Of a stretch of DNA of 53,356 nt, positions 4,404-37,004 are shown in pieces (within the stretch, counting starts at the first letter, position 1; each line of letters begins with the position of its first letter). The notes under the pieces were generated by a model. The model was given only the letters and a program-made list of their open reading frames with translations. It did not search any database and was not told the origin of the DNA. Source of the stretch: a virus (Duplodnaviria; Caudoviricetes); IMG/VR virus record IMGVR_UViG_3300038548_000358, positions 1 through 53,356 of that record; one strand, given 5' to 3'. Made by a program: the position numbers and the translations under genes.

Positions 4404-6401
4404 TTATAGTTTAATGTAAGTATTATCATCTGTTAATAGTCCAATTATTGGAGCGATACTTTCGATCTCAGTTCCTTGACCGTCTACCTCTGAGTTATAA
4501 ACGTTACCATCTTTAGTAAATGTAGCGGTGACAGTTATCAAATTAGAGTTTCCCCAAGGTTCGGTCTCAGGATCGCCTGATATTACGTACTTAACCCCAT
4601 CCAAGTACAACTCCTTATGTAGTATCGCTTGTGTGATTTGTCGCATAATTCCGAAAGTCACAGGTGAGAACGTAAGGATTTTAGTCTCGTACATCTGAGA
4701 GTTTAAAAGTATAGTGTTGGTATCTGTGTTTAATGCGTCTATTTTTGGATCTATTCCAGGAATAAACGTCTCAAAGTTAACCCTTATTAGGTTCTGAATA
4801 CCCGTGGAGTAAAACACATCTGTATTAGTTGGGTTCCAATACCTGATCTCCATGGTGTCCTCAAACCTCTCAGCCACTTCTATTTTTTCGCTAAGTTCTC
4901 GAACGTCATCGAACACTGCATCGGTAGCCAAAACCTCAACTTGTATGATTTGGTCCTCGTATATTGAAAAATCTACCTCGAACTCATATACCTCAAAGTT
5001 CTCTATGTTGTAGATAGAACTGGCTATTATTGTTGCAGGAATACCTCCATACACCAAATTAATGACTAGGACATCAGCGTTTACTGAGGCGTTAAATATA
5101 ATATCAACGATATCAAACCAACCCGTCCCATCTAAGAAAATGGAGTTACCAATGATACCGAAATCAGGCAGAGCACCATTTAGTGCATACGTCCCATTTT
5201 GGATATCTGTATCGTAATCGTAGGTATTCCCTGAGGTAAAATACACCCCTGTCTGAGTTCCATTTATGTCGTAATAGGTAGAGTCTAATTTAGATTTTCT
5301 GCCTAAATTCGAGGAGTGTTTAGTTATTGCGAGGGTATCTTTTGTGCCATCTTCTTTTATCACGTTCACCTCTCGGGTGTCCCTGTTAGTTTTAAACTGT
5401 ATAGGCCTATCGGTGTCACAAGTTTGAAACTGTTGAATTGTTTGGTATGGCAGCAATACGTTGTTCTCACAGCTCAGTGTATTTTCTTCGTTCTTATAGT
5501 TGGAGCAATCACCCCAAACGATATCTCTTTTAAATCTTATCGACATTGACTTAGACAAGGAGAAAAAAGGTACTGTTGCGTCCACGCTAGGTGTGAAGTC
5601 ATCAACTACAAAGGCATCATTTACATTACATCCAAATTGATCCCGAACGTATGCCGTGTAATTACCTGGGAGTATTCCCGTGAATGTGTTGGAGACTTTG
5701 AAAGTTATATTGTCTAGTGAGTACTCCAAGGCTAAGCCGTCTACAGAGGACACATTTATAGTCACAGTGGCCCCAATAGGAGCACCTAAGATATTAACCG
5801 TTATATTCGAGGCTGATAATGTTTGAGGGGTTGTTACCGCCTCAGTGTCTTGCTCAGCCGTGGCACTCTCGCATATTATCGAGATATTATCACCTCTTAC
5901 CCATTCGAAAAAGAAAGGGTTAACGAGATTAGGGTCAATCACTAGGGGAGAGGTTACTTTCACAGCTAACTCACTCGTGTCCACTTGCACCTTAACATGA
6001 GAGCAAACAGGGTTAACTGTAGGAGCCAAAAAAGTCACATCGTCAATAGTAAAAGGAGGTGCCTCAACTTGATTATCTATAAAGGTGGTTACCTTACCTA
6101 GAGTAGTATTAAACTCCTCCACGAATACTACGTTTGGTTGGGTGGCTTCTATCGTCACAACATTCCCTATGCGGGTAACAACGTACAGCCCCGTAGTTGT
6201 GTAATCTGCGGTTACTGCAGCCGTGTAAAAGACTGCCGAGTTTACAGAACTAATGCCTATCGTAGATTGGAAAGAAGCCGTTCGAGACAGTTCAAAAGTT
6301 TCAAATATATCCACCCCCGACAAGTTGTTCGATATAAGGATAGTTTCTCCCACGATTAATGGGTGCGTGTTAAAGGTTAAAACTATTTTACTTTTTGCCA
6401 T
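4404..6401 (-). CDS. Putative minor tail/baseplate protein with Ig-like segment
   Basis: Beta-rich. The LEYSLDN...FTGILPGNYTAYVRDQFGC segment resembles SprB/Ig-like repeats. Lies downstream of the TMP. Confidence 0.6.
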   Translation of the reverse strand: MAKSKIVLTFNTHPLIVGETILISNNLSGVDIFETFELSRTASFQSTIGISSVNSAVFYTAAVTADYTTTGLYVVTRIGNVVTIEATQPNVVFVEEFNTTLGKVTTFIDNQVEAPPFTIDDVTFLAPTVNPVCSHVKVQVDTSELAVKVTSPLVIDPNLVNPFFFEWVRGDNISIICESATAEQDTEAVTTPQTLSASNITVNILGAPIGATVTINVSSVDGLALEYSLDNITFKVSNTFTGILPGNYTAYVRDQFGCNVNDAFVVDDFTPSVDATVPFFSLSKSMSIRFKRDIVWGDCSNYKNEENTLSCENNVLLPYQTIQQFQTCDTDRPIQFKTNRDTREVNVIKEDGTKDTLAITKHSSNLGRKSKLDSTYYDINGTQTGVYFTSGNTYDYDTDIQNGTYALNGALPDFGIIGNSIFLDGTGWFDIVDIIFNASVNADVLVINLVYGGIPATIIASSIYNIENFEVYEFEVDFSIYEDQIIQVEVLATDAVFDDVRELSEKIEVAERFEDTMEIRYWNPTNTDVFYSTGIQNLIRVNFETFIPGIDPKIDALNTDTNTILLNSQMYETKILTFSPVTFGIMRQITQAILHKELYLDGVKYVISGDPETEPWGNSNLITVTATFTKDGNVYNSEVDGQGTEIESIAPIIGLLTDDNTYIKL

Positions 6402-12858: not shown

Positions 12859-12871
12859 TCTTAACTGTTTT

Positions 12872-12900
12872 AAAAAGGGTACGCCTTAATAACGTACCCT
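12872..12900 (-). terminator. Intrinsic terminator after major tail protein
   Basis: AGGGTACG/CGTACCCT 8-bp stem followed by TTTT on the minus strand. Confidence 0.75.
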
Positions 12901-12925
12901 AGTTTTAAATCAAAAGGGAAATATA

Positions 12926-14516: not shown

Positions 14517-15220
14517 ATACCAAATCTATTATAAGGTGCGTAAATCTTGAATTGGAAGTCTGGAAAAGCTGTAGGGTCTAATTCGTTAGAATCGTTCAAA
14601 TACTGCCACAGTGACGCTTGCACGTTTCGTGTGAATTGTTTGTATAATTCAATTGAATCAAGATACCCTAAGTAATCCTTTCCTGCACTGCATGTGTTCC
14701 CGTAACCTTTACCTGAATACATACTCGAGTAGTTTCTACGAAACTGATATAGGTCTCCTTGGTATTGTTCTAAGAAGCTCCCGAAGGATCTCACGTATTT
14801 AGCGGTGGAGTCTGCTGTCACTGCTGTGTCGGATTGGTTTTTAACCACTCCAACAGTCGCATAGGTTAACTCATCAAACACTAAGTATTGTGAGTACGCA
14901 TAGAAAGCAACTAAACTCTGTTTTAAGAATCCTCTTAACCCATCCCAAATATATGTTTTACCATCAATAACATAGGTACTGCCTGTAACTAACTTATCCC
15001 ATTTCGGGTCGGCTGCGCCTAGATCATCTAAGGCTACAACTAACTGAGCGTATAGAGTAACACCTAAGGCGTTAAGCAATAGTTCCCTCTCATACTTCTT
15101 CCTGATAGCGGTCAGATTAGTCTGAGCCGTTGGGCTTCCTTCTGGTTGTGCATTCAGGTCTTTGTTGTTCGGGATGAACAACTCGGCTGTTTCAAAATAT
15201 GTGTCATCTATTACATCCAT
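14513..15220 (-). CDS. Putative head-tail adaptor protein
   Basis: First gene after the capsid block. Helical. Confidence 0.5.
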   Translation of the reverse strand: MDVIDDTYFETAELFIPNNKDLNAQPEGSPTAQTNLTAIRKKYERELLLNALGVTLYAQLVVALDDLGAADPKWDKLVTGSTYVIDGKTYIWDGLRGFLKQSLVAFYAYSQYLVFDELTYATVGVVKNQSDTAVTADSTAKYVRSFGSFLEQYQGDLYQFRRNYSSMYSGKGYGNTCSAGKDYLGYLDSIELYKQFTRNVQASLWQYLNDSNELDPTAFPDFQFKIYAPYNRFGI

Positions 15221-15237
15221 TTGGCTCTATTTATTAA

Positions 15238-15265
15238 TAAAAAAGGAGGTTTTTAGTCTCCTTTT
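15238..15265 (-). terminator. Intrinsic terminator after capsid block
   Basis: AAAAGGAG/CTCCTTTT inverted repeat with T-tract. Confidence 0.6.
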
Positions 15266-15277
15266 TTAAATTGGTTC

Positions 15278-18271: not shown

Positions 18272-19646
18272 CGCTTGGCGTGTTAATGGTTATACCTATC
18301 GTTTGCAACTCCTTATCGGTTAAATCGAATATCGTTTTAGTTCCGATGCTTGCGTTCTCAGGCTGACCAAATGAGGCCAAGTATGTATTATAGTTAATTG
18401 CTCCTATCTTAAATGCGTCTAGGGCTGTTTCTTGGTTCTTGTTGTTGACTTCTGCCTCCTCTTTTTGGTTTTTCTGCAATACCTTTAAGTGATCAAACGT
18501 CCCGAGCAACTCTATTCCGAGCGACTCAGTTTTAAAAAAGTTATTCAGGGATATCATGAAATCCTTAGACTCAGGTATGACAGTTGAGTCGTAAAGTCTC
18601 CTTTCGTCTACGTTGCTGTCTGTACCAAGTGTCCCTGTTTTGATATAATATCTTACCAGTGACTCAGGAACTCCGTAGCCATTACATACTGCGATAGCTG
18701 CATTAGCGACAGAACTGTCCAACATTAAATCCTTCATACTAAACCCTGTTTTTTGCCATTTTAATGGCTGAGGTGATATGATTTGTTGGTACTGACCCTC
18801 TAATGTTCCGTATTTCTTAAAAGCTTCCTGCACGTTATCTATTTCACTATCATTCAAGGGCAGTGATCCCAAGACGCTGTCTCCCCTATCCGAAGTCCAT
18901 GCTCCGTGAGGTCCACGTTGTTTTATGATAACGTTTTGACTTTCCAGTGCTCTGTCAACAATAGAAATAGGTTTTTGTAGTGCGATTAGCTTGGAGTTTC
19001 CCTCAGTAAAGTGTCTATCTAGTTTGATATTCACGTTGTTTGTGTGGAAAACTTTATTTGTGTGTAGTTCTTTATCTAATCCGTTGGCTGATCTTAGCCT
19101 GTAGCATTTTATAATTTCATCCTTCCTAGTAGCTTCAAGCCAATGTCCTGTAATTACAGGAGTCACCAAGTATGGAGGTAGGTTATTGATAACCCTAATC
19201 TCCTCATAAGTGAAAATATCCTCGAATCCAACAGGTAAAGAGGCGTAAGAGTATCCATTTCCAAAAACCTCGCTGTTTACCTTGAATTGCCTCAACCACT
19301 CGAAAGTGGACTGCAGTGGGTTAGGTTTAGCTAATAGGTCTTTAAGTTTACCCCCGTCATCCTTGTACTGGTTTATCGGGGTGACCTCATCTGTTTTTAA
19401 ATCCTTAACACTAAACCTCATATTTGAGAAAGCCAATGCTTTGACATCTATGACAGCCTGTACTACAGGATTTTCGCAATAACAATTAAGTAAATAGATT
19501 GACTCGGATAAGTTCCGGTATGAAGGAGTACCTCCTACAATAGTTAATGTGTTCAGCCCTATTAAGCCCGCATTTGAAGAGGTCGAGCCCCTTAAGCTCA
19601 AGCCGAGTTTAATGACATTATTCCCGATAAAAGAACCGATTCCCAT
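18261..19646 (-). CDS. Portal protein (HK97-like)
   Basis: LAKPNPLQS.FEW, VFGNGY, ICN/VCNGYGVP-type motifs. 461 aa. Confidence 0.92.
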   Translation of the reverse strand: MGIGSFIGNNVIKLGLSLRGSTSSNAGLIGLNTLTIVGGTPSYRNLSESIYLLNCYCENPVVQAVIDVKALAFSNMRFSVKDLKTDEVTPINQYKDDGGKLKDLLAKPNPLQSTFEWLRQFKVNSEVFGNGYSYASLPVGFEDIFTYEEIRVINNLPPYLVTPVITGHWLEATRKDEIIKCYRLRSANGLDKELHTNKVFHTNNVNIKLDRHFTEGNSKLIALQKPISIVDRALESQNVIIKQRGPHGAWTSDRGDSVLGSLPLNDSEIDNVQEAFKKYGTLEGQYQQIISPQPLKWQKTGFSMKDLMLDSSVANAAIAVCNGYGVPESLVRYYIKTGTLGTDSNVDERRLYDSTVIPESKDFMISLNNFFKTESLGIELLGTFDHLKVLQKNQKEEAEVNNKNQETALDAFKIGAINYNTYLASFGQPENASIGTKTIFDLTDKELQTIGITINTPSDGE

Positions 19647-20662: not shown

Positions 20663-21007
20663 TTATCTTAGTTTTTGACTACTTCTTTCTAAATTATTAC
20701 CCCAAAGAGCGAGGATCAACACAAACGGTAGTTTCCACCCGAACCAAATAAATGACAAGGCTAGTGCAGTTATGCCTATTATTAATCCTAAAAATGCTTT
20801 TTTGTTTTTAGGTGCGTTCAGGCGCATCCGTTCAGTGTAGTGGGTGTGGAACTCTTCGTAAGTCTCAAACAAGAAAGACTCGTTTTCCCCCGTCTCAAAT
20901 ATGTAAGGGAAACAACCTAATATAACAGTCATTTTTCCTTTTGTGCAAAACTCTCCTTGAGGGAAAGTAAAGCCAAGAGCTTCTAATTTCTCAGTTAGGT
21001 CTTTCAT
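20663..21007 (-). CDS. Hypothetical membrane protein
   Basis: C-terminal hydrophobic hairpin. Tiled ORF. Confidence 0.6.
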   Translation of the reverse strand: MKDLTEKLEALGFTFPQGEFCTKGKMTVILGCFPYIFETGENESFLFETYEEFHTHYTERMRLNAPKNKKAFLGLIIGITALALSFIWFGWKLPFVLILALWGNNLERSSQKLR

Positions 21008-23773: not shown

Positions 23774-23803
23774 AAAAGCTCTTTAAATGAATAAAGAGCT
23801 TTT
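23774..23803. terminator. Possibly bidirectional intrinsic terminator
   Basis: 12-bp inverted repeat AAAAGCTCTTTA/TAAAGAGCTTTT. Confidence 0.65.
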
Positions 23804-26619: not shown

Positions 26620-26661
26620 GGTATTGATTTTAAAGGGGGTTTTTATTCCCCCTGTTTATTT

Positions 26662-28961: not shown

Positions 28962-29255
28962 GGAAACAAAGAGAAACAATAAGAAACAATCATTGTTTCC
29001 GCTACAGCCCGTGCCACCACTAGGTTTTTGGGCAAAGGAAACAAAGAAACAATAAAAAAGCCTCTGTAACCTTATAGCGCGTTTTATGCGTTTACCCGTT
29101 TTATATACCGTTAGTAGTTATATTTCTATATTTACTAATTAAAGTCTTTTACTATATTTATTGTTTCTTTGTTTCCCCACCCTGCCAAACCTCGCCACCA
29201 CTGAGTTTTTGGTGGAAACAATCATTGTTTCTTATTGTTTCTCTTTGTTTCCTTT
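28962..29255. repeat. Nested inverted-repeat element of GAAACAA units, copy 1 (origin candidate)
   Basis: 39-bp outer arms 28962-29000/29214-29252 (1 mismatch), perfect 20-bp inner arms 29037-29056/29157-29176, AT-rich core. Confidence 0.9.
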
Positions 29256-31603: not shown

Positions 31604-32308
31604 TTAATAAAGCTCATCGTTTTTAAAATCGAATATCCTGTCCTGAGCTATTCCAAAATACTTATCATCCATCTCGATCCCTATAAAATTACGATTAGTG
31701 TTTACACAAGCTACTCCAGTCGACCCACTGCCCATAGTAAAATCTAAAACAGTTTCGTTCTCGTTGGTGTATGTTTTAATTAAATACTCCATCAAAGCAG
31801 TTGGTTTTTGTGTGGGGTGTAGGCCTCTCTCACCTATGAACTCAAGGACATCCGTAGGGTAGTTTGTGTAATGGGATATGTTCTCCTTTCCGTGAGCTCC
31901 ATTCGTTTCTGTCGAGTTGCTACGCTTGTTTATCCTTGTCTTTTTAATTAGCCCCTGCGGGTTGTAGGCTTTTACATTAAAAACGCTTATTCTCTCAGTT
32001 TTCCGTAAGGGCTGCCTCTTTGCATTGAGGAAGTTTACGGGTCTTTTCATCCACACCCAATCATATTTATAATTCTTAATATTGCTCATCCTTAAAGCAC
32101 TACTAAACGGCTCAGAGCCAAACAAAACGATTGCACCGTTTGGTTTTATGATCCTGTTCAGCTGTTCCCACATTAAGTCAAAAGGAATAACACTGTCCCA
32201 CTTACAGGCTGTTGTGCCGTAGGGTGGGTCTGCTATGATGGCATCAATGCTGCCACTTTCTATTTTGTCGCTCTCTACGAGGCAGTCCCCTTTATATAAC
32301 TGTATCAT
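31604..32308 (-). CDS. Orphan amino-DNA methyltransferase (N6/N4, beta class)
   Basis: DPPY, HPTQKP, LDFTMGSGSTG motifs. Confidence 0.95.
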   Translation of the reverse strand: MIQLYKGDCLVESDKIESGSIDAIIADPPYGTTACKWDSVIPFDLMWEQLNRIIKPNGAIVLFGSEPFSSALRMSNIKNYKYDWVWMKRPVNFLNAKRQPLRKTERISVFNVKAYNPQGLIKKTRINKRSNSTETNGAHGKENISHYTNYPTDVLEFIGERGLHPTQKPTALMEYLIKTYTNENETVLDFTMGSGSTGVACVNTNRNFIGIEMDDKYFGIAQDRIFDFKNDELY

Positions 32309-33392: not shown

Positions 33393-34127
33393 CTAAAATT
33401 TAAAATCTTTAGGTGGTTTGGCTTCGTAAAGCTCATTTAGTTCCTTTTTAATCACGGCCATCCTCTCGTAGTTCTCGACAGGTAGGCACTCTTGCATTTC
33501 CCTATGTAATCGGTTTATCTTGTCTAAGATGTGCTCTTCTGCATACATGTCCTTGACCCAAGTGGCTGCTTTTGGGTTGAAATCTAAATGTACGTGACCT
33601 TCTCGGTGACTTTTCCAATCTCCTGGAGGGTTTATTCTGTGTTTATCTCCTTCTCTAGATATGTAGTACTCAAATGAATCCCTGCTGTGGTCTTCGAGGC
33701 GTGGGCTTATTCGTTTACGTAGCTCTCTATCCTCTTCGGTCAATCCATCGACATCCCTTATGGGGCTGTCTGCCTCATCTTTGTAACCCTGGTTTACTTC
33801 AAGCGAAGTCAGTTCCTCTCGTAGTTTCTGAATATCACATCCAATAGACCATTCTTTATCGAAATCCTTATCCTCAGTAGCTCGCATCTGTTTAGTCTCT
33901 AAAAATCTAATACTTTTACGGATTTCAGCCATGGTTCCGTATTTACTTTTTGGTTTATCAACCTCATCCATATACTCCTTAACATCCTCAGCAGCCTCCT
34001 TGGCTAGTCTTTTATTGTTGCCTGTGATAATCCATAGGAACAAACCCGCAAAAACAACACTCATTGCAAAAAACACCACTATTTCTGGGAGTCTTGCATT
34101 TTCGGTTAACATCGGTATATTTTCCAT
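33393..34127 (-). CDS. Hypothetical protein with N-terminal TM and UVR-like motifs
   Basis: TM segment, ATEDKDFD and VENYERMAVIKKEL motifs. Confidence 0.6.
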   Translation of the reverse strand: MENIPMLTENARLPEIVVFFAMSVVFAGLFLWIITGNNKRLAKEAAEDVKEYMDEVDKPKSKYGTMAEIRKSIRFLETKQMRATEDKDFDKEWSIGCDIQKLREELTSLEVNQGYKDEADSPIRDVDGLTEEDRELRKRISPRLEDHSRDSFEYYISREGDKHRINPPGDWKSHREGHVHLDFNPKAATWVKDMYAEEHILDKINRLHREMQECLPVENYERMAVIKKELNELYEAKPPKDFKF

Positions 34128-34140
34128 AGTTTCTAGGTTT

Positions 34141-34218
34141 TAACCCTTACCACGATCACTGCTAATCAATTCAAACAATTATAAGTGCAGCGTCGTGGGT
34201 TTTTCGTGGGTTGTTATT
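34141..34218 (-). ncRNA. Structured RNA motif, copy A (unnamed)
   Basis: Covarying with the copy at 36604-36683. See findings. Confidence 0.6.
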
Positions 34219-34224
34219 AACTTA

Positions 34225-34926
34225 TTATATTACCCCCATCATTCTTGGAAAGTGGGATTTGTTATAGTTCTTTTTAAAATCTTCAAATTTTGTTTTACAT
34301 ACCTTAAATGCTGTTTCGTTTTGGCACATCGGTTGCCCTATGTAGTAAAAATCTTTATCCTCAAACAACCAGTGTGCCGCCGTTAAGTGTGACTCATTTT
34401 TTAGACTCCTAACCTTAGTAAGCCCCTTAAAGCTCGGTTGGTCTTTATGTTCTCTAAATTCTCTAATTAATTCCGCAGGGCTAAGCTTTTTGTTTATTTC
34501 AACAGAAACCTCTAAAGAGGTGAATCCAGAACCTAAACAGTCAAAGCAAACACCCTGAGCATACCAAGCAAACTGAGGCAAATACCCTGTACCGTTACAC
34601 TTTGCACATTTAACAGGCATCTTAATTTCTGCTTTCGATAACTCTTTTACGTCATCCCTAGAAAGGAACCTGCCGACCGTAGTCAAAACGTCGATTGGCT
34701 CAACCGTAGAACCGTTGGGCATTTTAAACTGTGTAGCTTTACCGAAACCAGATACCCTAATATTCCATTTAAAACCGTTTTTGGTTTGTCTTATAAAACC
34801 AGTAGGCACTAATATAATCTTAACCGTATTATTCTTTAAAAGAGCGTTTAATTGCTTAACTGCACGGTTTCTGTTGTCATACTGCCCGCTGTGTCCTGCT
34901 TCTGTTAAAATGTCTTGGATTGTCAT
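34225..34926 (-). CDS. Hypothetical protein with DnaJ-type CxxCxGxG zinc finger
   Basis: CAKCNGTG...CFDCLGSG. Confidence 0.7.
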   Translation of the reverse strand: MTIQDILTEAGHSGQYDNRNRAVKQLNALLKNNTVKIILVPTGFIRQTKNGFKWNIRVSGFGKATQFKMPNGSTVEPIDVLTTVGRFLSRDDVKELSKAEIKMPVKCAKCNGTGYLPQFAWYAQGVCFDCLGSGFTSLEVSVEINKKLSPAELIREFREHKDQPSFKGLTKVRSLKNESHLTAAHWLFEDKDFYYIGQPMCQNETAFKVCKTKFEDFKKNYNKSHFPRMMGVI

Positions 34927-34947
34927 AATATATCTGTTTTGATACTG

Positions 34948-34955
34948 TAAAGATA
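34948..34955 (-). promoter_or_regulatory. -7 promoter box variant TATCTTTA
   Basis: Same flanks and leader as the 36944 promoter. Confidence 0.65.
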
Positions 34956-35007
34956 CACAATTATATTGAATACGAAAGTTTTTATATAAAAAATATGAAA
35001 AAATGTT

Positions 35008-35346
35008 TTATTCTAGTTCAACCCCTTTTAAGAATTCGTCCACGCCGCCCCCAAAAGTCAGTACCTCTAAAGGCAAGTGTGCCTCTCCTGGGTTTGACAT
35101 ATTGCATCTCTCGCAGGCCCTAACGCACCATTTATTTGGTATGTCTAATTTGTCTACGGGTTTAAAGTCCCCGCCCTCAGATGTCCCTGGGTTCACCTGA
35201 GCGATACCTAGCTCAGAGTCGGCAAAGTACTCCCAGTCATCGAGATTACCTCGTTTAAGTCTTGCCCCTGAACCGAAGGCTTTGTAGCAGTTCTCGTCAC
35301 AGTTGACTTTTGCGTCTTGTCCGAAAAATTTGATTATTGCTTCCAT
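35008..35346 (-). CDS. Hypothetical Cys-containing protein
   Basis: CDENC...WCVRACERC, PGTSEGGD. Confidence 0.6.
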   Translation of the reverse strand: MEAIIKFFGQDAKVNCDENCYKAFGSGARLKRGNLDDWEYFADSELGIAQVNPGTSEGGDFKPVDKLDIPNKWCVRACERCNMSNPGEAHLPLEVLTFGGGVDEFLKGVELE

Positions 35347-35591
35347 TATATTAATGAGTTTAAAATTTCAACTGTTATTTTTGCCTTCTCTTTAGGCGTA
35401 GGCGCTTGGCTAGGAGGTTGCCTCCTTCTTGAGTAAGAAAACTGATGCTTGCATAAGTAGTGGCCATTTAAGGTCTCAGTAAACATCTGAGTTATGCACC
35501 CGAACCAATTCCTTTTAATTATTTTGGCTTGGACCAAGTACTGCTTTTTACCTACTTTTTTCAAAGTGTATTTTTCGATGGTGTGTGACAT
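35346..35591 (-). CDS. Hypothetical protein
   Basis: Tiled ORF. Confidence 0.5.
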   Translation of the reverse strand: MSHTIEKYTLKKVGKKQYLVQAKIIKRNWFGCITQMFTETLNGHYLCKHQFSYSRRRQPPSQAPTPKEKAKITVEILNSLI

Positions 35592-35596
35592 AGTTT

Positions 35597-35821
35597 TTAA
35601 GGTTTAACCGAGGTAATAGATACAAACGCCTCGTTGTATGAGTCAGCAAAATACCCGCAATGTTGAATAGGGGCCGTACAGGATGAGTGCCTAGTTAAAG
35701 GTATTACTGAGCCAAGTACTTTTATGGTGTGCTCAGCCGCTTCTAGTGCCTCCTTAAATCCTTCGAATTTCGAGGTTACTTTTGCTTTTGTGCTGTATAT
35801 TTCAGTTTTCAGTACGTACAT
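35597..35821 (-). CDS. Hypothetical protein
   Basis: Tiled ORF. Confidence 0.5.
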   Translation of the reverse strand: MYVLKTEIYSTKAKVTSKFEGFKEALEAAEHTIKVLGSVIPLTRHSSCTAPIQHCGYFADSYNEAFVSITSVKP

Positions 35822-35826
35822 GGTTT

Positions 35827-36246
35827 CTAATCTTTCCAGTTAACGATATACCCTCCTCGGGACGGGTCGTACTCAGCCTTGGTGACTCCTACTTGTTTAC
35901 CCCCTACGGTGATCTTGAAATCCTCAGCTTTTAGCTCCTTTATATCTATTGCATGCCTTTGTAAAATTCTCAAACTAGACCCCGACCTAGCTGCGTACTC
36001 TTGGATAGGGGCATCAACTTGAACAGTTCTCAGCTTAGCCACCACCAATGCATCTGCAGGAGTAAGTCTCAGGTTGGCCTGATGGGTTTCCATCTTTTTG
36101 CCTGACTTGGTGGTCTCTAGGTAGGCGAATGGCCACACCATCTTTTTAAGCACCCACGTGCTGTAGTGGTTATATCCTCCGATTGTATAAGTTTGACCGA
36201 TAAGGAAATCCTCAGGTATTCGGTCTGCCTCTGTTATTTTAGTCAT
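35827..36246 (-). CDS. Hypothetical protein
   Basis: Tiled ORF. Confidence 0.55.
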   Translation of the reverse strand: MTKITEADRIPEDFLIGQTYTIGGYNHYSTWVLKKMVWPFAYLETTKSGKKMETHQANLRLTPADALVVAKLRTVQVDAPIQEYAARSGSSLRILQRHAIDIKELKAEDFKITVGGKQVGVTKAEYDPSRGGYIVNWKD

Positions 36247-36592
36247 GGTGTAGGTTTTTCATTTCAGCAAAAAACATGTTTAAGAACCTAAGCTCAAGGC
36301 TTGACAGGTTGTCCGTGGTCTTATCATTTACTAGCCACTTACCGTTTTCAAGGGTTACTTTGAGGGTGATTTCCGTTAGCGTTTTCTCAGGGATAGACTT
36401 CATAGAATAAACACCCCAATTATTCACTATCTCGAACTTTTTCCAAGAGTAGGTCGTTACGTCTCTTTTTGATGTGAGTAAGACCATCTCTTTTTCAACA
36501 GTGTCGAAAGGGGTTCCTATTTGTTTTAAAACTTCTTCCTCGAACTGTTCGAAACCATCTGGGTCGTTTCCGATCTCTAAAATATGTATCAT
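36239..36592 (-). CDS. Hypothetical protein
   Basis: Probable start is ATG 36592 (MIHILEIG), downstream of RNA motif copy B. Confidence 0.55.
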   Translation of the reverse strand: MIHILEIGNDPDGFEQFEEEVLKQIGTPFDTVEKEMVLLTSKRDVTTYSWKKFEIVNNWGVYSMKSIPEKTLTEITLKVTLENGKWLVNDKTTDNLSSLELRFLNMFFAEMKNLHHD

Positions 36593-36603
36593 AATTTCTT
36601 TTT

Positions 36604-36683
36604 TAATCCCATTACCGCAATCTCTGTGTGGAAAATTCACTTTGAATAAGTACAGAGCTGCGGGCTTGTCGTGGGTTGTTATT
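36604..36683 (-). ncRNA. Structured RNA motif, copy B (unnamed)
   Basis: Covarying with the copy at 34141-34218. Confidence 0.6.
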
Positions 36684-36685
36684 GT

Positions 36686-36922
36686 TTAGTAGCCTAAAGA
36701 CTTAACCATCCCTTGCGTCAAGTGGTTAAGATAGTGAAATACATCACCGTTTAAAAAATCTATTTTTACTAAGGTTGCTCTTATTTGTGCGTGGTACTGA
36801 GGTGCAGCCTCTATGAAATCAACTAACATGCTATAGGTTAATCCAAAATGCCCATCTATCTGGATCTCTTGGTCTAAGCTTGTTCCTTTTTCTGTTATTA
36901 AGTTGATTAAGTAAGTTTTCAT
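36686..36922 (-). CDS. Hypothetical promoter-proximal (early-type) protein
   Basis: Start ATG 36922 (MKTYLINL) after the shared leader. Contains TLVKIDFLNGDVFHYL. Confidence 0.65.
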   Translation of the reverse strand: MKTYLINLITEKGTSLDQEIQIDGHFGLTYSMLVDFIEAAPQYHAQIRATLVKIDFLNGDVFHYLNHLTQGMVKSLGY

Positions 36923-36943
36923 AATATATCTGTTTTGATATTT

Positions 36944-36951
36944 CAAAGATA
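36944..36951 (-). promoter_or_regulatory. -7 promoter box TATCTTTG
   Basis: Consensus match, with TTG about 20 nt upstream. Confidence 0.75.
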
Positions 36952-37004
36952 CACCTTTATTCCAATAAACAATACTTTATTTTAAAAATAAGTGAAAAAA
37001 AGTT

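Follow-up and report, generated by a model that had tools for sequence, protein, structure and literature searches.

Bacteroidota initiate translation without a Shine-Dalgarno sequence and use unusual promoters with the -7 consensus TAnnTTTG, and the way in which their phages handle polycistronic mRNAs is, to our knowledge, almost uncharted. Intergenic RNA signals of other phages are better described. Lambda-type nut sites combine a boxA related to the host rrn boxA with a short boxB hairpin, the conserved loop of which binds N; N proteins are small and diverse. Lambda nutR is located behind cro, and the put sites of HK022, similarly placed, consist of two adjacent stem-loops (~70 nt) that act on RNA polymerase without a protein. 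RNase III sites of the T7 type are imperfect helices of roughly two turns that are cleaved by RNase III within an internal loop. In T4-type phages, PeSL (promoter-early stem-loop) cassettes join a sigma-70 promoter and a terminator stem-loop in one unit (PMC2839356; PMC4122927).

Here we analysed a window of 53,356 bp that is a complete phage genome with every gene on the minus strand; the phage is marine and of flavobacterial type. Gaps between ORFs are mostly -11 to +24 nt, which makes the genome tightly packed, and the larger ones are occupied by promoters or terminators. Two gaps of 93 and 97 nt, the only ones holding a hairpin without a T-run, each harbor a copy of the same element (Table 1). 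Both copies were located at the positions and on the minus (coding) strand given by an earlier sequence-only reading of this DNA, and its claim that each one lies between the stop codon of a first gene and the next ATG holds in both cases: the elements start 2-6 nt past the stop codon, and the hairpin base is 14-15 nt before the ATG. The proteins encoded downstream of copies A and B are unrelated.

Table 1. Positions of the two elements, their structural parts and the promoter modules in the window
Feature	Position	Strand	Description
Element A, 91-nt intercistronic module	34128..34218	-	Stop of the 233-aa ORF (34225-34926) to ATG of the 244-aa ORF (33393-34127)
Element B, 91-nt intercistronic module	36593..36683	-	Stop of the 78-aa ORF (36686-36922) to ATG of the 117-aa ORF (36590-36592)
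Invariant 15-mer AATAACAACCCACGA, copy A	34204..34218	-	Bases 7-11 (AACCC) form the P1 5' arm
Invariant 15-mer AATAACAACCCACGA, copy B	36669..36683	-	Bases 9-12 (CCCA) form the P1 5' arm
Core hairpin, copy A	34150..34198	-	P2, 34193-34198 with 34150-34155; P3, 34187-34192 with 34157-34162
Bulged A and 24-nt loop, copy A	34156; 34163-34186	-	Small helix P4 inside the loop
UAA and P1 3' arm, copy A	34142..34149	-	UAA, 34147-34149; GGGUU, 34142-34146
Core hairpin, copy B	36615..36663	-	P2, 36658-36663 with 36615-36620; P3, 36652-36657 with 36622-36627
Bulged A and 24-nt loop, copy B	36621; 36628-36651	-	Small helix P4 inside the loop
UAA and P1 3' arm, copy B	36608..36614	-	UAA, 36612-36614; UGGG, 36608-36611
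Promoter and short-leader module P_A	34924..35007	-	-7 box TATCTTTA; leader ATATC-N6-GATAT; extends to the ATG of the 233-aa cargo ORF
Promoter and short-leader module P_B	36920..37004	-	-7 box TATCTTTG; extends to the ATG of the 78-aa cargo ORF
Promoter and leader module P_C, third copy	51226..51320	-	72% to P_B; element absent after the first gene

The 15-mer opening each element occurs exactly twice in the genome, both times on the minus strand, and a control search with its letters read backwards yielded 0 matches. Alignment of the two spacers gave 85 ungapped columns, 33 of which differ; these differences spare the 15-mer (0/15) and affect 9/24 stem positions and 14/24 loop positions; all 33 fall within the 70 columns outside the 15-mer. 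Spacing is fixed: in both copies, the stretch that opens with the 15-mer and closes just before the ATG measures exactly 91 nt, and 22 nt separate the end of P2 from the ATG. The common layout is the 15-mer, a 5-nt spacer, a 12-bp helix with one bulged A and a 24-nt loop, and an A-rich start region, besides an outer helix. In the 5' half of the element, C is abundant and G is scarce.

The sequence-only reading had pointed out two 6-bp stems that differ between the copies yet pair fully. Indeed, P2 and P3 retain 12/12 pairs in both copies, with four pairs double-changed and one single-changed. Sliding the partner strand by 1-3 columns left pairing at only 21-50%. When nine substitutions were scattered at random over the 24 stem positions, the full set of 12 pairs survived in 30 of 200,000 trials. 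The shuffle control of the covariation tool gave 39/500, a test with a floor of ~1/16 when, as here, covariation is known from a single sequence pair (copies A and B). With stem divergence at 9/24 positions that was always compensated, the hairpin shows selection on its pairing. The outer helix P1 (AACCC/GGGUU in copy A, CCCA/UGGG in copy B) and the small apical helix P4 are present in both copies, and together P1, P2, P3 and P4 comprise ~22 bp, broken up by one bulge and by internal loops of 9/3 and 6/5. The conserved unpaired bases are ACUUAU, UGAAUU, the bulged A and UAA, the loop UGAAUU being shared but shifted by one base. Compared with their own shuffles, the folds reached z = -2.69 and -2.85. 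One G-U pair per copy corresponds to an A-C mismatch on the opposite strand, and fold energies for sense versus antisense were -22.6 versus -20.2 in copy A and -20.5 versus -20.8 in copy B; since these energies are similar, the strand assignment rests on gene direction and the two G-U pairs. Neither a junction of several helices nor a pseudoknot common to both copies was supported.

Terminators of the window are canonical hairpins followed by a T-run (26620-26661, 23774-23803, 15221-15277, and 12859-12925), and at least three of them (26620-26661, 15221-15277, and 12859-12925) lead directly into promoterless genes. A canonical intrinsic terminator, in which a U-tract adjoins a stable G+C-rich hairpin, was rejected for the elements: past P2, the RNA sequence is UAAGGGUUAAAACC (copy A) or UAAUGGGAUUAAAAAAG (copy B), with no U-tract, and a terminator scan that called 26634-26653 and 23774-23803 called neither element on the minus strand.

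A scan of the whole window against Rfam at gathering thresholds returned no match, nor did a permissively filtered Rfam 15 search of the elements themselves at E values as high as 10, curated ribozyme classes and riboswitches included, which agrees with the earlier statement that the motif matched no family recognised in that reading. The covariance-model search proposed at the same time as a route to relatives found no further homologue in the collections covered; the two copies themselves scored, by construction, 114.7 bits (Element A) and 103.8 bits (Element B). Among 40 ORFs compared with PHROGs, ten of them also with Pfam, none fell into an antiterminator or RNA-binding regulator family. 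The neighboring genes have no metabolic theme, and none of the RNA runs searched contained this phage.

The promoter modules preceding the two elements are near-identical, and one gene separates module from element. By eye, no -7 box of the TAnnTTTG type was evident in or just upstream of either element, and the five genes past copy B and the five ORFs past copy A have no promoter of their own. The promoter-unit context proposed from the sequence stands for both copies, with one restriction: the first gene of P_C has no element behind it, so that the link between module and element is limited to two of the three modules.

A MAFFT alignment placed both elements alongside six promoter-proximal leaders from related phages (L051, three times, L058, and L052), anchored at AATAACAA(C/T) and (T)AGAAATTATG, with the hairpin as a ~55-60-nt insertion between these anchors; in the same alignment, a 25-nt stretch just upstream of copy B is similar to the relatives' promoters around the -7 box. 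The leader motif, in which AATAACAA(C/T) closely follows the -7 box and (T)AGAAATTATG coincides with the start codon, was found in 5 of 6 listed leaders of L051, L052 and L058. Both elements carry it too, differing from those leaders by the added hairpin and by having no intact -7 box upstream. Judged by alignment, the element ends are homologous to the relatives' leaders, and the element is best regarded as a structured leader module. Hairpins at related positions were observed in other phages. Relative L055 has two promoter modules with a leader hairpin directly behind each. In relative L050, a promoter unit has, behind its first gene, a 93-nt spacer with a 12-bp hairpin and a U-run, and homologues of the 117-aa and 139-aa ORFs lie downstream. 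In L181/L182 the order is stop codon, AATAACAACCC, hairpin, U6, A-rich leader, and ATG.

The environmental sequences compared with the locus are all contigs from a single study. A 1,212-nt contig (run X4, record 22) retains 36584-36683 with 3 letters changed and 1 gap (~96% identity), while its upstream 231 letters are unlike the window and the downstream 335 nt are replaced by 256 others, likeness to the window returning at 36027-36248. Because this contig keeps that span while its flanks are exchanged, the conserved unit extends from the 15-mer to just beyond the ATG. Environmental contigs also have one additional base at the copy B bulge. Joints and loose ends map to the 5' edge of the elements (34207 and 36683) and to the promoter modules (34947 to 36942, 36953 or 36957), including a joint from 34207 to 34947 and several loose ends at 34207; in most joints the sides are short, 24-35 letters with 80% likeness, for which the tool gives a warning of unreliability. 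Together, the compensatory changes, the G-U pairs, the 15-mer, and the environmental retention sustain the earlier proposal of a functional cis-RNA as far as a selected sense-strand element is concerned, and both copies are best read as a selected, sense-strand, cis-acting element of RNA type.

Our tentative explanation, to which we assign a probability of roughly 0.3, is a portable structured leader, a kind of punctuation between cistrons, that would act post-transcriptionally on the downstream block through mRNA processing or stability. Its outer parts would be the ordinary promoter-proximal leader of the group, AAUAACAAC at the 5' side and UAGAAA(U/C)UAUG at the 3' side, with a ~62-nt hairpin of three to four helices seated between them. 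Because a variable cargo ORF with its own short leader separates promoter from element, the element is at once the cargo gene's 3' UTR and the 5' UTR of its downstream neighbor. The hairpin would form within the polycistronic minus-sense RNA, and a host or phage factor may read the single-stranded A/C-rich 15-mer together with the conserved loop and bulge bases. The RNA would then be cut, or its decay arrested, at the element, leaving the downstream message with a stable stem-loop near its 5' end, so that its lifetime and translation would be uncoupled from the identity of the upstream cargo gene. In this scheme we infer that the RNA is cut or its decay halted, which factor is involved, and that expression downstream is affected. 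A passive insulator gained no support from an accessibility test, in which opening positions -18 to +12 costs 7.28 (A) and 5.85 (B) kcal/mol, against means of 6.20 (A) and 4.81 (B) kcal/mol for shuffled hairpins, 75/100 and 81/100 shuffles being at least as open. A simple stabilizer needs neither an invariant 15-mer nor conserved unpaired bases, which points to a specific partner; these same features fit a protein operator or an antiterminator equally well.

Processive antitermination of the nut/put type, by which polymerase that has passed the element would resist the canonical terminators downstream, is in our view unlikely. It would proceed either by RNA alone, as in put, or through a factor reading the 15-mer and the hairpin, as in nut, and it would account for the architecture, in which a single-stranded conserved motif is set off by 5 nt from a hairpin that has covarying stems but invariable unpaired bases, as well as for the placement of both copies one short gene behind near-identical promoters. 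The joint from 34207 to 34947 and the loose ends at 34207 would further suggest that the element can also lie nearer a promoter in environmental forms. Read-through is indeed needed somewhere, because at least three terminators lead straight into promoterless genes. Nonetheless, the elements are separated from the terminators by several ordinary promoters, the third promoter copy lacks an element, the conserved unit takes in a downstream start region that is superfluous for an antiterminator, the fold is a single extended hairpin rather than two adjacent stem-loops, and the scanned ORFs provided no antiterminator family. The 15-mer had no match at up to 4 mismatches in 12 Flavobacteriaceae rrn leaders (10 of the 12 at least 207 nt long), and because it is unlike their boxA-like motif, which is our own reading of these leaders, one specific route to a nut-like mechanism would be removed. 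Transcription could instead be lowered at the element, which would act as an attenuator ending a moron-like or PeSL-like cassette and, by non-canonical or Rho-assisted termination or by pausing, restrain transcription running from a strongly expressed first gene into the genes behind it. The element does close a unit in which promoter and hairpin are conserved while the cargo ORF between them varies; the hairpins with U-runs at comparable spacers of L050 and L181/L182 would, by analogy, favor an attenuator at that position; and Rho loading sites are C-rich and G-poor, much as the 5' half of the element. We consider this unlikely, given that a U-tract is missing after both hairpins but present in all four window terminators read, that strong termination would silence the five promoterless genes past copy B and the five ORFs past copy A, and that a terminator needs no invariant 15-mer 5' of its hairpin and no conserved loop bases.

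The identical ATG spacing, with zero indels over 91 nt despite 33 substitutions, and the extension of the conserved unit through the ATG in the environmental contig would suit a translational operator, at which an RNA-binding protein of phage or host on the 15-mer and hairpin would repress or activate initiation 22 nt past P2 and thereby time the downstream block. Bulged A and loop bases are typical protein contacts in coat-protein operators, and both are conserved here. Yet the hairpin base, 14-15 nt from the ATG, is at the edge of the ribosome footprint, the two downstream proteins are unrelated, and no RNA-binding regulator was found among the scanned ORFs, so that an operator seems quite unlikely. 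We regard as improbable that the element has no RNA function and is a recombination linker or selfish palindromic insertion kept as homology for gene swapping in a hyperplastic region. The contig joints and loose ends at the element 5' edge and the promoter modules, the resemblance of the hairpin to an insertion into a standard leader, and the about equal stability of sense and antisense folds are consistent with it; most of those joints are, however, of the unreliable short-sided kind, and homology-driven exchange requires conserved sequence, yet the stems diverged with compensation. Moreover, the G-U pairs are strand-specific, there are two copies only, and the terminal-repeat conservation of MITEs is absent. 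Very improbable is a new self-cleaving ribozyme or ligand-binding RNA (riboswitch) that would process or gate the polycistronic mRNA. Several small ribozyme classes are common between phage genes, the setting found here, and an extended hairpin with two internal loops, in which unpaired bases are conserved while stems covary, is compatible with such an RNA. Against it stand the lack of any Rfam match even at E up to 10, the lack of support in both copies for a multi-helix junction or pseudoknot, and neighbor genes without a metabolic theme. More broadly, a new protein-independent RNA class in marine Flavobacteriia phages, be it a put-like RNA that would reprogram host RNA polymerase or a new self-cleaving motif, travelling as a portable cassette that marks where exchangeable cargo genes give way to conserved downstream ones, is a quite doubtful prospect.

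The element is probably a new RNA control signal. Selected RNA pairing, an invariant recognition box and retention across gene swaps make it a clonable reporter handle on Bacteroidota phage mRNA. Were it shown to act in antitermination, in RNA processing or as a ribozyme, no comparable element would have been described before from this phage group, and it would be a candidate insulating part for Flavobacteriia genetics; should it be without effect, it would still document leader modules as gene-exchange junctions, like the PeSLs of T4-type phages.

Among known systems, nutR/nutL and putL/putR resemble the element in that there are two per genome, placed after similar early promoters, in the leader or after a first short gene, with a conserved single-stranded box followed by a hairpin; those sites act in cis on the transcript, as the element may by analogy. 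There is no likeness to nut or put in sequence or in Rfam. The hairpin is ~4x the length of boxB, an N-like protein was not found in the 40 scanned ORFs, and the 15-mer is unlike the rrn boxA-like motif; the architecture of HK022 put RNA is not reproduced either, as both copies fold as one extended hairpin. T7 RNase III sites and stabilizers of the gene 10 leader type are, like the element, irregular hairpins of ~20 bp with internal loops, located between genes or at a 5' end and followed by an unstructured leader and a start codon. T7 has about ten RNase III sites, compared with two elements here, and the invariant 15-mer outside the helix has no T7 counterpart. Integron attC sites share with the element imperfect hairpins conserved in structure and variable in sequence, with extrahelical bases, 3' of exchangeable cargo. 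In contrast to attC, no integrase was found and, by eye, no correctly oriented RYYYAAC/GTTRRRY core sites; each cargo gene is served by a promoter of its own, and G-U pairing indicates RNA rather than folded single-stranded DNA.

PeSLs are defined by promoter boxes and a stem-loop in one intergenic cassette (PMC2839356); here the nearest promoter is one gene upstream. A PeSL is thus a single composite, whereas the promoter and hairpin modules of this phage lie a gene apart, and the element further departs from PeSLs in having no promoter box, no U-tract, an invariant single-stranded 15-mer, and covarying stems. Like PeSLs, the element is nonetheless a short conserved intergenic module, probably regulatory, that is flanked by small, variable ORFs without assigned function and stops where the following gene begins; as PeSLs do, it may lie in a hyperplastic region and mark points of exchange among related phages.

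Both copies of the intercistronic hairpin element, A and B, were located where the sequence-only reading had placed them. The invariant single-stranded 15-mer at the 5' end of the element (AATAACAACCCACGA) occurs exactly twice genome-wide, each time on the coding strand, and the copies align gap-free. Counted from the first nucleotide of the 15-mer up to, but not including, the ATG, each of them spans exactly 91 nt, and helix P2 ends 22 nt from the ATG. Folding energies were better than those of shuffled sequences for both copies (z = -2.69 and -2.85). The unpaired parts claimed to be conserved, that is, ACUUAU, UGAAUU and UAA, indeed recur in both, and a nexus-like hairpin, as in a tracrRNA, is present in copy A only.

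Coordinates and structural parts of the element and of the associated promoter modules
Feature	Position	Strand	Description
Element copy A	34128-34218	minus	91-nt intercistronic hairpin spacer
Element copy B	36593-36683	minus	91-nt intercistronic hairpin spacer
P_A	34924-35007	minus	promoter and leader module, near-identical to P_B
P_B	36920-37004	minus	promoter and leader module, near-identical to P_A
P_C	51226-51320		third copy of the module; first gene of 88 aa, beginning MKT like the 78-aa ORF; no element after it
Helix P1			AACCC/GGGUU in copy A; CCCA/UGGG in copy B
Internal loop between P1 and P2			9/3, with the conserved UAA
P2, bulge and P3			6 bp, bulged A and 6 bp in both copies
Apical loop			24 nt, with ACUUAU and UGAAUU common to the copies; small apical helix

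The two copies differ at 33 of 85 aligned columns, of which none falls in the 15-mer (0/15), nine in the stems (9/24) and 14 in the loop (14/24). The internal covariation proposed from sequence was borne out, since the stems differ between copies, yet every one of the 12 P2/P3 positions forms a standard pair in A as well as in B; four pairs carry changes in both partners and one in a single partner. As a control, sliding the partner strand left 21-50% pairing, and nine random stem substitutions kept all pairs in just 30 of 200,000 trials; a covariation shuffle control, whose floor is ~1 in 16 with two sequences, gave 39/500. The selection signal on the element is real, though read from two copies only. 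Stability differs little between the sense and antisense folds, and the sense-strand, RNA-level reading is taken because of the gene direction and the two G-U pairs, one per copy.

Behind each of two promoter and short-leader modules, the first gene ends with its stop codon 2-6 nt ahead of the element. This agrees with the proposed context, in which each copy follows the first gene of a near-identical module (P_A, P_B) and precedes the next ATG. Given that P_C lacks the element, the association holds in two of the three modules. No sequence relationship connects the first genes of the modules (78, 233, and 88 aa), nor the genes downstream of the two elements. Protein scans retrieved no close relatives of the 233-, 139- and 244-aa ORFs; for the last, the database contains only two entries, its own and one of 33% identity. 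The 233-aa cargo ORF (34225-34926) contains two CxxCxGxG motifs, which we take to resemble a DnaJ-type zinc finger, and its PHROG matches are weak and to families devoid of assigned function. In all three leaders (34927-34947, 36923-36943, and 51235-51257) the stretch from the -7 box to the ATG contains an inverted repeat, ATATC-N6/8-GATAT, a possible operator or small 5' hairpin. An unrelated IMG/VR phage (L179, 3371-3395; L180, near 5693-5711) has 25 bases in common with the P_A leader, ATG included, where they form the terminal part of an apparent ORF; this match is too long for chance.

No Rfam family matched (Rfam 15, gathering thresholds; elements at E up to 10), in keeping with the earlier failure to recognise one. 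The proposed search for further homologues, with a covariance model (R1) built from copies A and B, found zero beyond these founders. R1 recovered only A and B in the window, the other 10 matches scoring at most 13 bits, and nothing in 16 related loci, 12 whole related records, 151 Flavobacteriaceae genomes, the unrelated phage with the P_A-like stretch, or the stretches that five DNA patterns retrieved from collections of viral, metagenome and genome contigs. The exact 15-mer retrieved 44 stretches from viral_contigs, none with the hairpin, while the 15-mer followed by NNNNCC retrieved 22 from metagenome_contigs and 27 from genome_contigs, all attributable to chance; 24 of these 27 lie inside open frames of at least 141 aa, and the top model score of 25 bits was driven by the search motif itself. 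Likewise, AACCCACGA-N46-58-GGTAAKGG yielded 55 stretches in viral_contigs, a single one of which scored (20.1 bits), with 11 nt in place of the hairpin. Comparison of both copies with 50,697 records of cultured phages by blastn gave best E values of 0.9-3 at coverage of at most 30%. This absence of homologues applies to moderately distant relatives only, and the element is, as far as seen, confined to one narrow marine phage lineage. None of the sequencing runs found to hold the region was an RNA run containing the phage.

Kinship was instead evident with ordinary phage leaders. Three relatives (L051, L052, and L058) have, within about 5-11 nt of the -7 box, AATAACAA(C/T), and their leaders end in (T)AGAAATTATG. 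In a MAFFT alignment of these leaders and the two elements, the hairpin appears as a ~55-60-nt insertion, and the 25 nt 5' of copy B line up with the -7 box region of the relatives' promoters. Searching for AATAACAACCC-N58-88-AGAAAYTATG returned 12 stretches, read as six distinct sequences, two of which (L181/L182 and L185/L188) lie between genes, as leaders or spacers, and bear different hairpins. In both (L181, minus strand, 882-976; L182, 12495-12589; L185/L188, minus strand), AATAACAACCC comes directly past a stop codon or promoter-like stretch and is followed by the hairpin, one with a terminator-like U6 tract, and then by AGAAATTATG. The available parts of the six sequences have no proteins in common with the window, and these two could be analogues of the leader module only. 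Elsewhere, the related phage L055 repeats one leader hairpin (GAGCGA...UCGCU), followed by a start region rich in A, directly behind each of two promoter modules (14769-14854 and 18340-18490). In L050, at a roughly syntenic place (20770-20862), the first gene of a promoter unit is succeeded by a 93-nt spacer with a 12-bp A/U-flanked hairpin and a U-run that look terminator-like. The shared leader ends and the relatives' arrangements mark the element as a structured version of the common leader module; in this genome it is parted from its promoter by a cargo ORF that has a short leader of its own.

The phage genome, 53,356 bp long, makes up an entire IMG/VR virus record; it has direct terminal repeats (127-nt repeat) and 77 retained ORFs, tightly packed and all on the minus strand. 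Its gene set is that of a tailed phage, with small and large terminases and a portal protein for packaging, and a primase-helicase, a DNA polymerase, two helicase or exonuclease genes, a Gp2.5-like SSB, a dUTPase and two DNA methyltransferases. Likeness to cultured phages at the DNA level is weak and limited to Tenacibaculum and Croceibacter phages, while 16 IMG/VR contigs encode a 36-72% identical primase-helicase. The recurring promoter modules bear TATCTTTG-type boxes, which presumably fit the Bacteroidota -7 consensus. Several other repeats were noted. The methyltransferase genes (phrog_67; 31604-32308 and 40805-41725) are a paralogous pair with DNA repeats of 71-78% identity, and a 170-aa ORF (49809-50321) contains six tandem 18-nt repeats at 49970-50125. 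Two large ORF-poor gaps share a 137-nt repeat, 83% identical (29119-29255 and 51530-51666) and rich in GAAACAA(T) iterons, including the palindrome GAAACAAT-g-ATTGTTTC; the relative L047 (8198-8732) has similar iterons (GTAAACAAT). These arrays could be origins or regulator-binding sites.

Parts of the element region were present as contigs in four marine metagenome runs of one study, for which depth values are contig depths; stretches without coverage there were given no weight. Record 22 of run X4 is a 1,212-nt mosaic contig whose first 231 letters are unlike the window; it then keeps 36683-36584, from the 15-mer through the ATG and two codons, with three changed letters and one gap, has 256 other letters in place of 335 nt, and resumes likeness at 36248-36027, where 15 letters are changed. 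Its single gap reflects an additional base at the bulge (36621), where contigs of runs X3 and X5 also have one. In other contigs likeness stops at the 5' edge of the element, with loose ends at 34207 and 36683, and joints connect 34207 to 34947, 36683 to 36915, and 34947 to 36942, 36953 or 36957; we take these joints as hints only because their sides are short (24-35 letters) at 80% likeness. Taken together, the contigs indicate that the 15-mer-to-ATG unit is retained while genes on either side are swapped.

These comparisons establish the element as a selected hairpin with an invariant flanking box, fixed start-codon spacing and a leader ancestry, retained across gene exchange. For its function we tentatively favor a post-transcriptional role (probability of about 0.3), in which RNA would be cleaved, or its decay arrested, at the element. 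The downstream gene block would be left with a protective stem-loop and would thereby be uncoupled from the variable cargo gene. Conservation of the unpaired bases points to a specific partner, and hence keeps antitermination, a protein operator and attenuation under consideration. An antitermination site, a rather doubtful reading, would be in line with the three window terminators that have promoter-less genes directly after them, but the 15-mer does not resemble the boxA-like motif in the 12 rrn leaders of Flavobacteriaceae compared. Most of those leaders that are long enough (among L167-L178) conserve AAGTTCATTGACATATTG upstream of 16S, which we read as a putative boxA-like element. Attenuation is unlikely, given that the window terminators are canonical hairpins with T-runs, whereas the elements have no T-run and were not called terminator-like on the coding strand. 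An operator bound by a protein, to which the same unpaired bases would be suited, is decidedly unlikely too. Improbable as well is a site serving recombination only, with no RNA function, an explanation weakened by the compensatory stem changes, and a new ribozyme or riboswitch is very improbable indeed.

Other candidates were rejected. Passive insulation of the start region was dismissed because the native hairpin leaves the start no more open than shuffled ones. The longest complement of the 15-mer to 16S rRNA is 6 nt, equalled by 407 of 500 shuffles. As for stop-codon read-through or frameshifting, the frame stays open as far as the next ATG in copy B, but copy A has a double stop and another 17 codons on. 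The search for a promoter in or just 5' of the element found one sigma-70-like match (34224-34251) and no counterpart at copy B, in a scan that was at chance overall (42 found vs 42.5 expected). Alternative pairing of the 3' arm with CCACGA inside the 15-mer is feasible in copy A only, and a pseudoknot joining the 15-mer (AUAA) to the loop (UUAU) would comprise four A-U pairs devoid of covariation.

Compared with known systems, the element fails the test for a canonical terminator, as it has no T-run. Antiterminating put sites have a two-stem architecture, which the element lacks. Among described systems, the closest appear to be the promoter-early stem-loop (PeSL) cassettes of T4-type phages, which two reports present as conserved intergenic regulatory modules at exchange points in hyperplastic regions (PMC2839356, PMC4122927). 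The element resembles them as a conserved intergenic, putatively regulatory module at what may be exchange points, but lacks the feature that defines PeSLs, promoter and stem-loop in one unit (PMC2839356), since here a gene lies between the two. We read the element as a structured leader or punctuation cassette of a phage.
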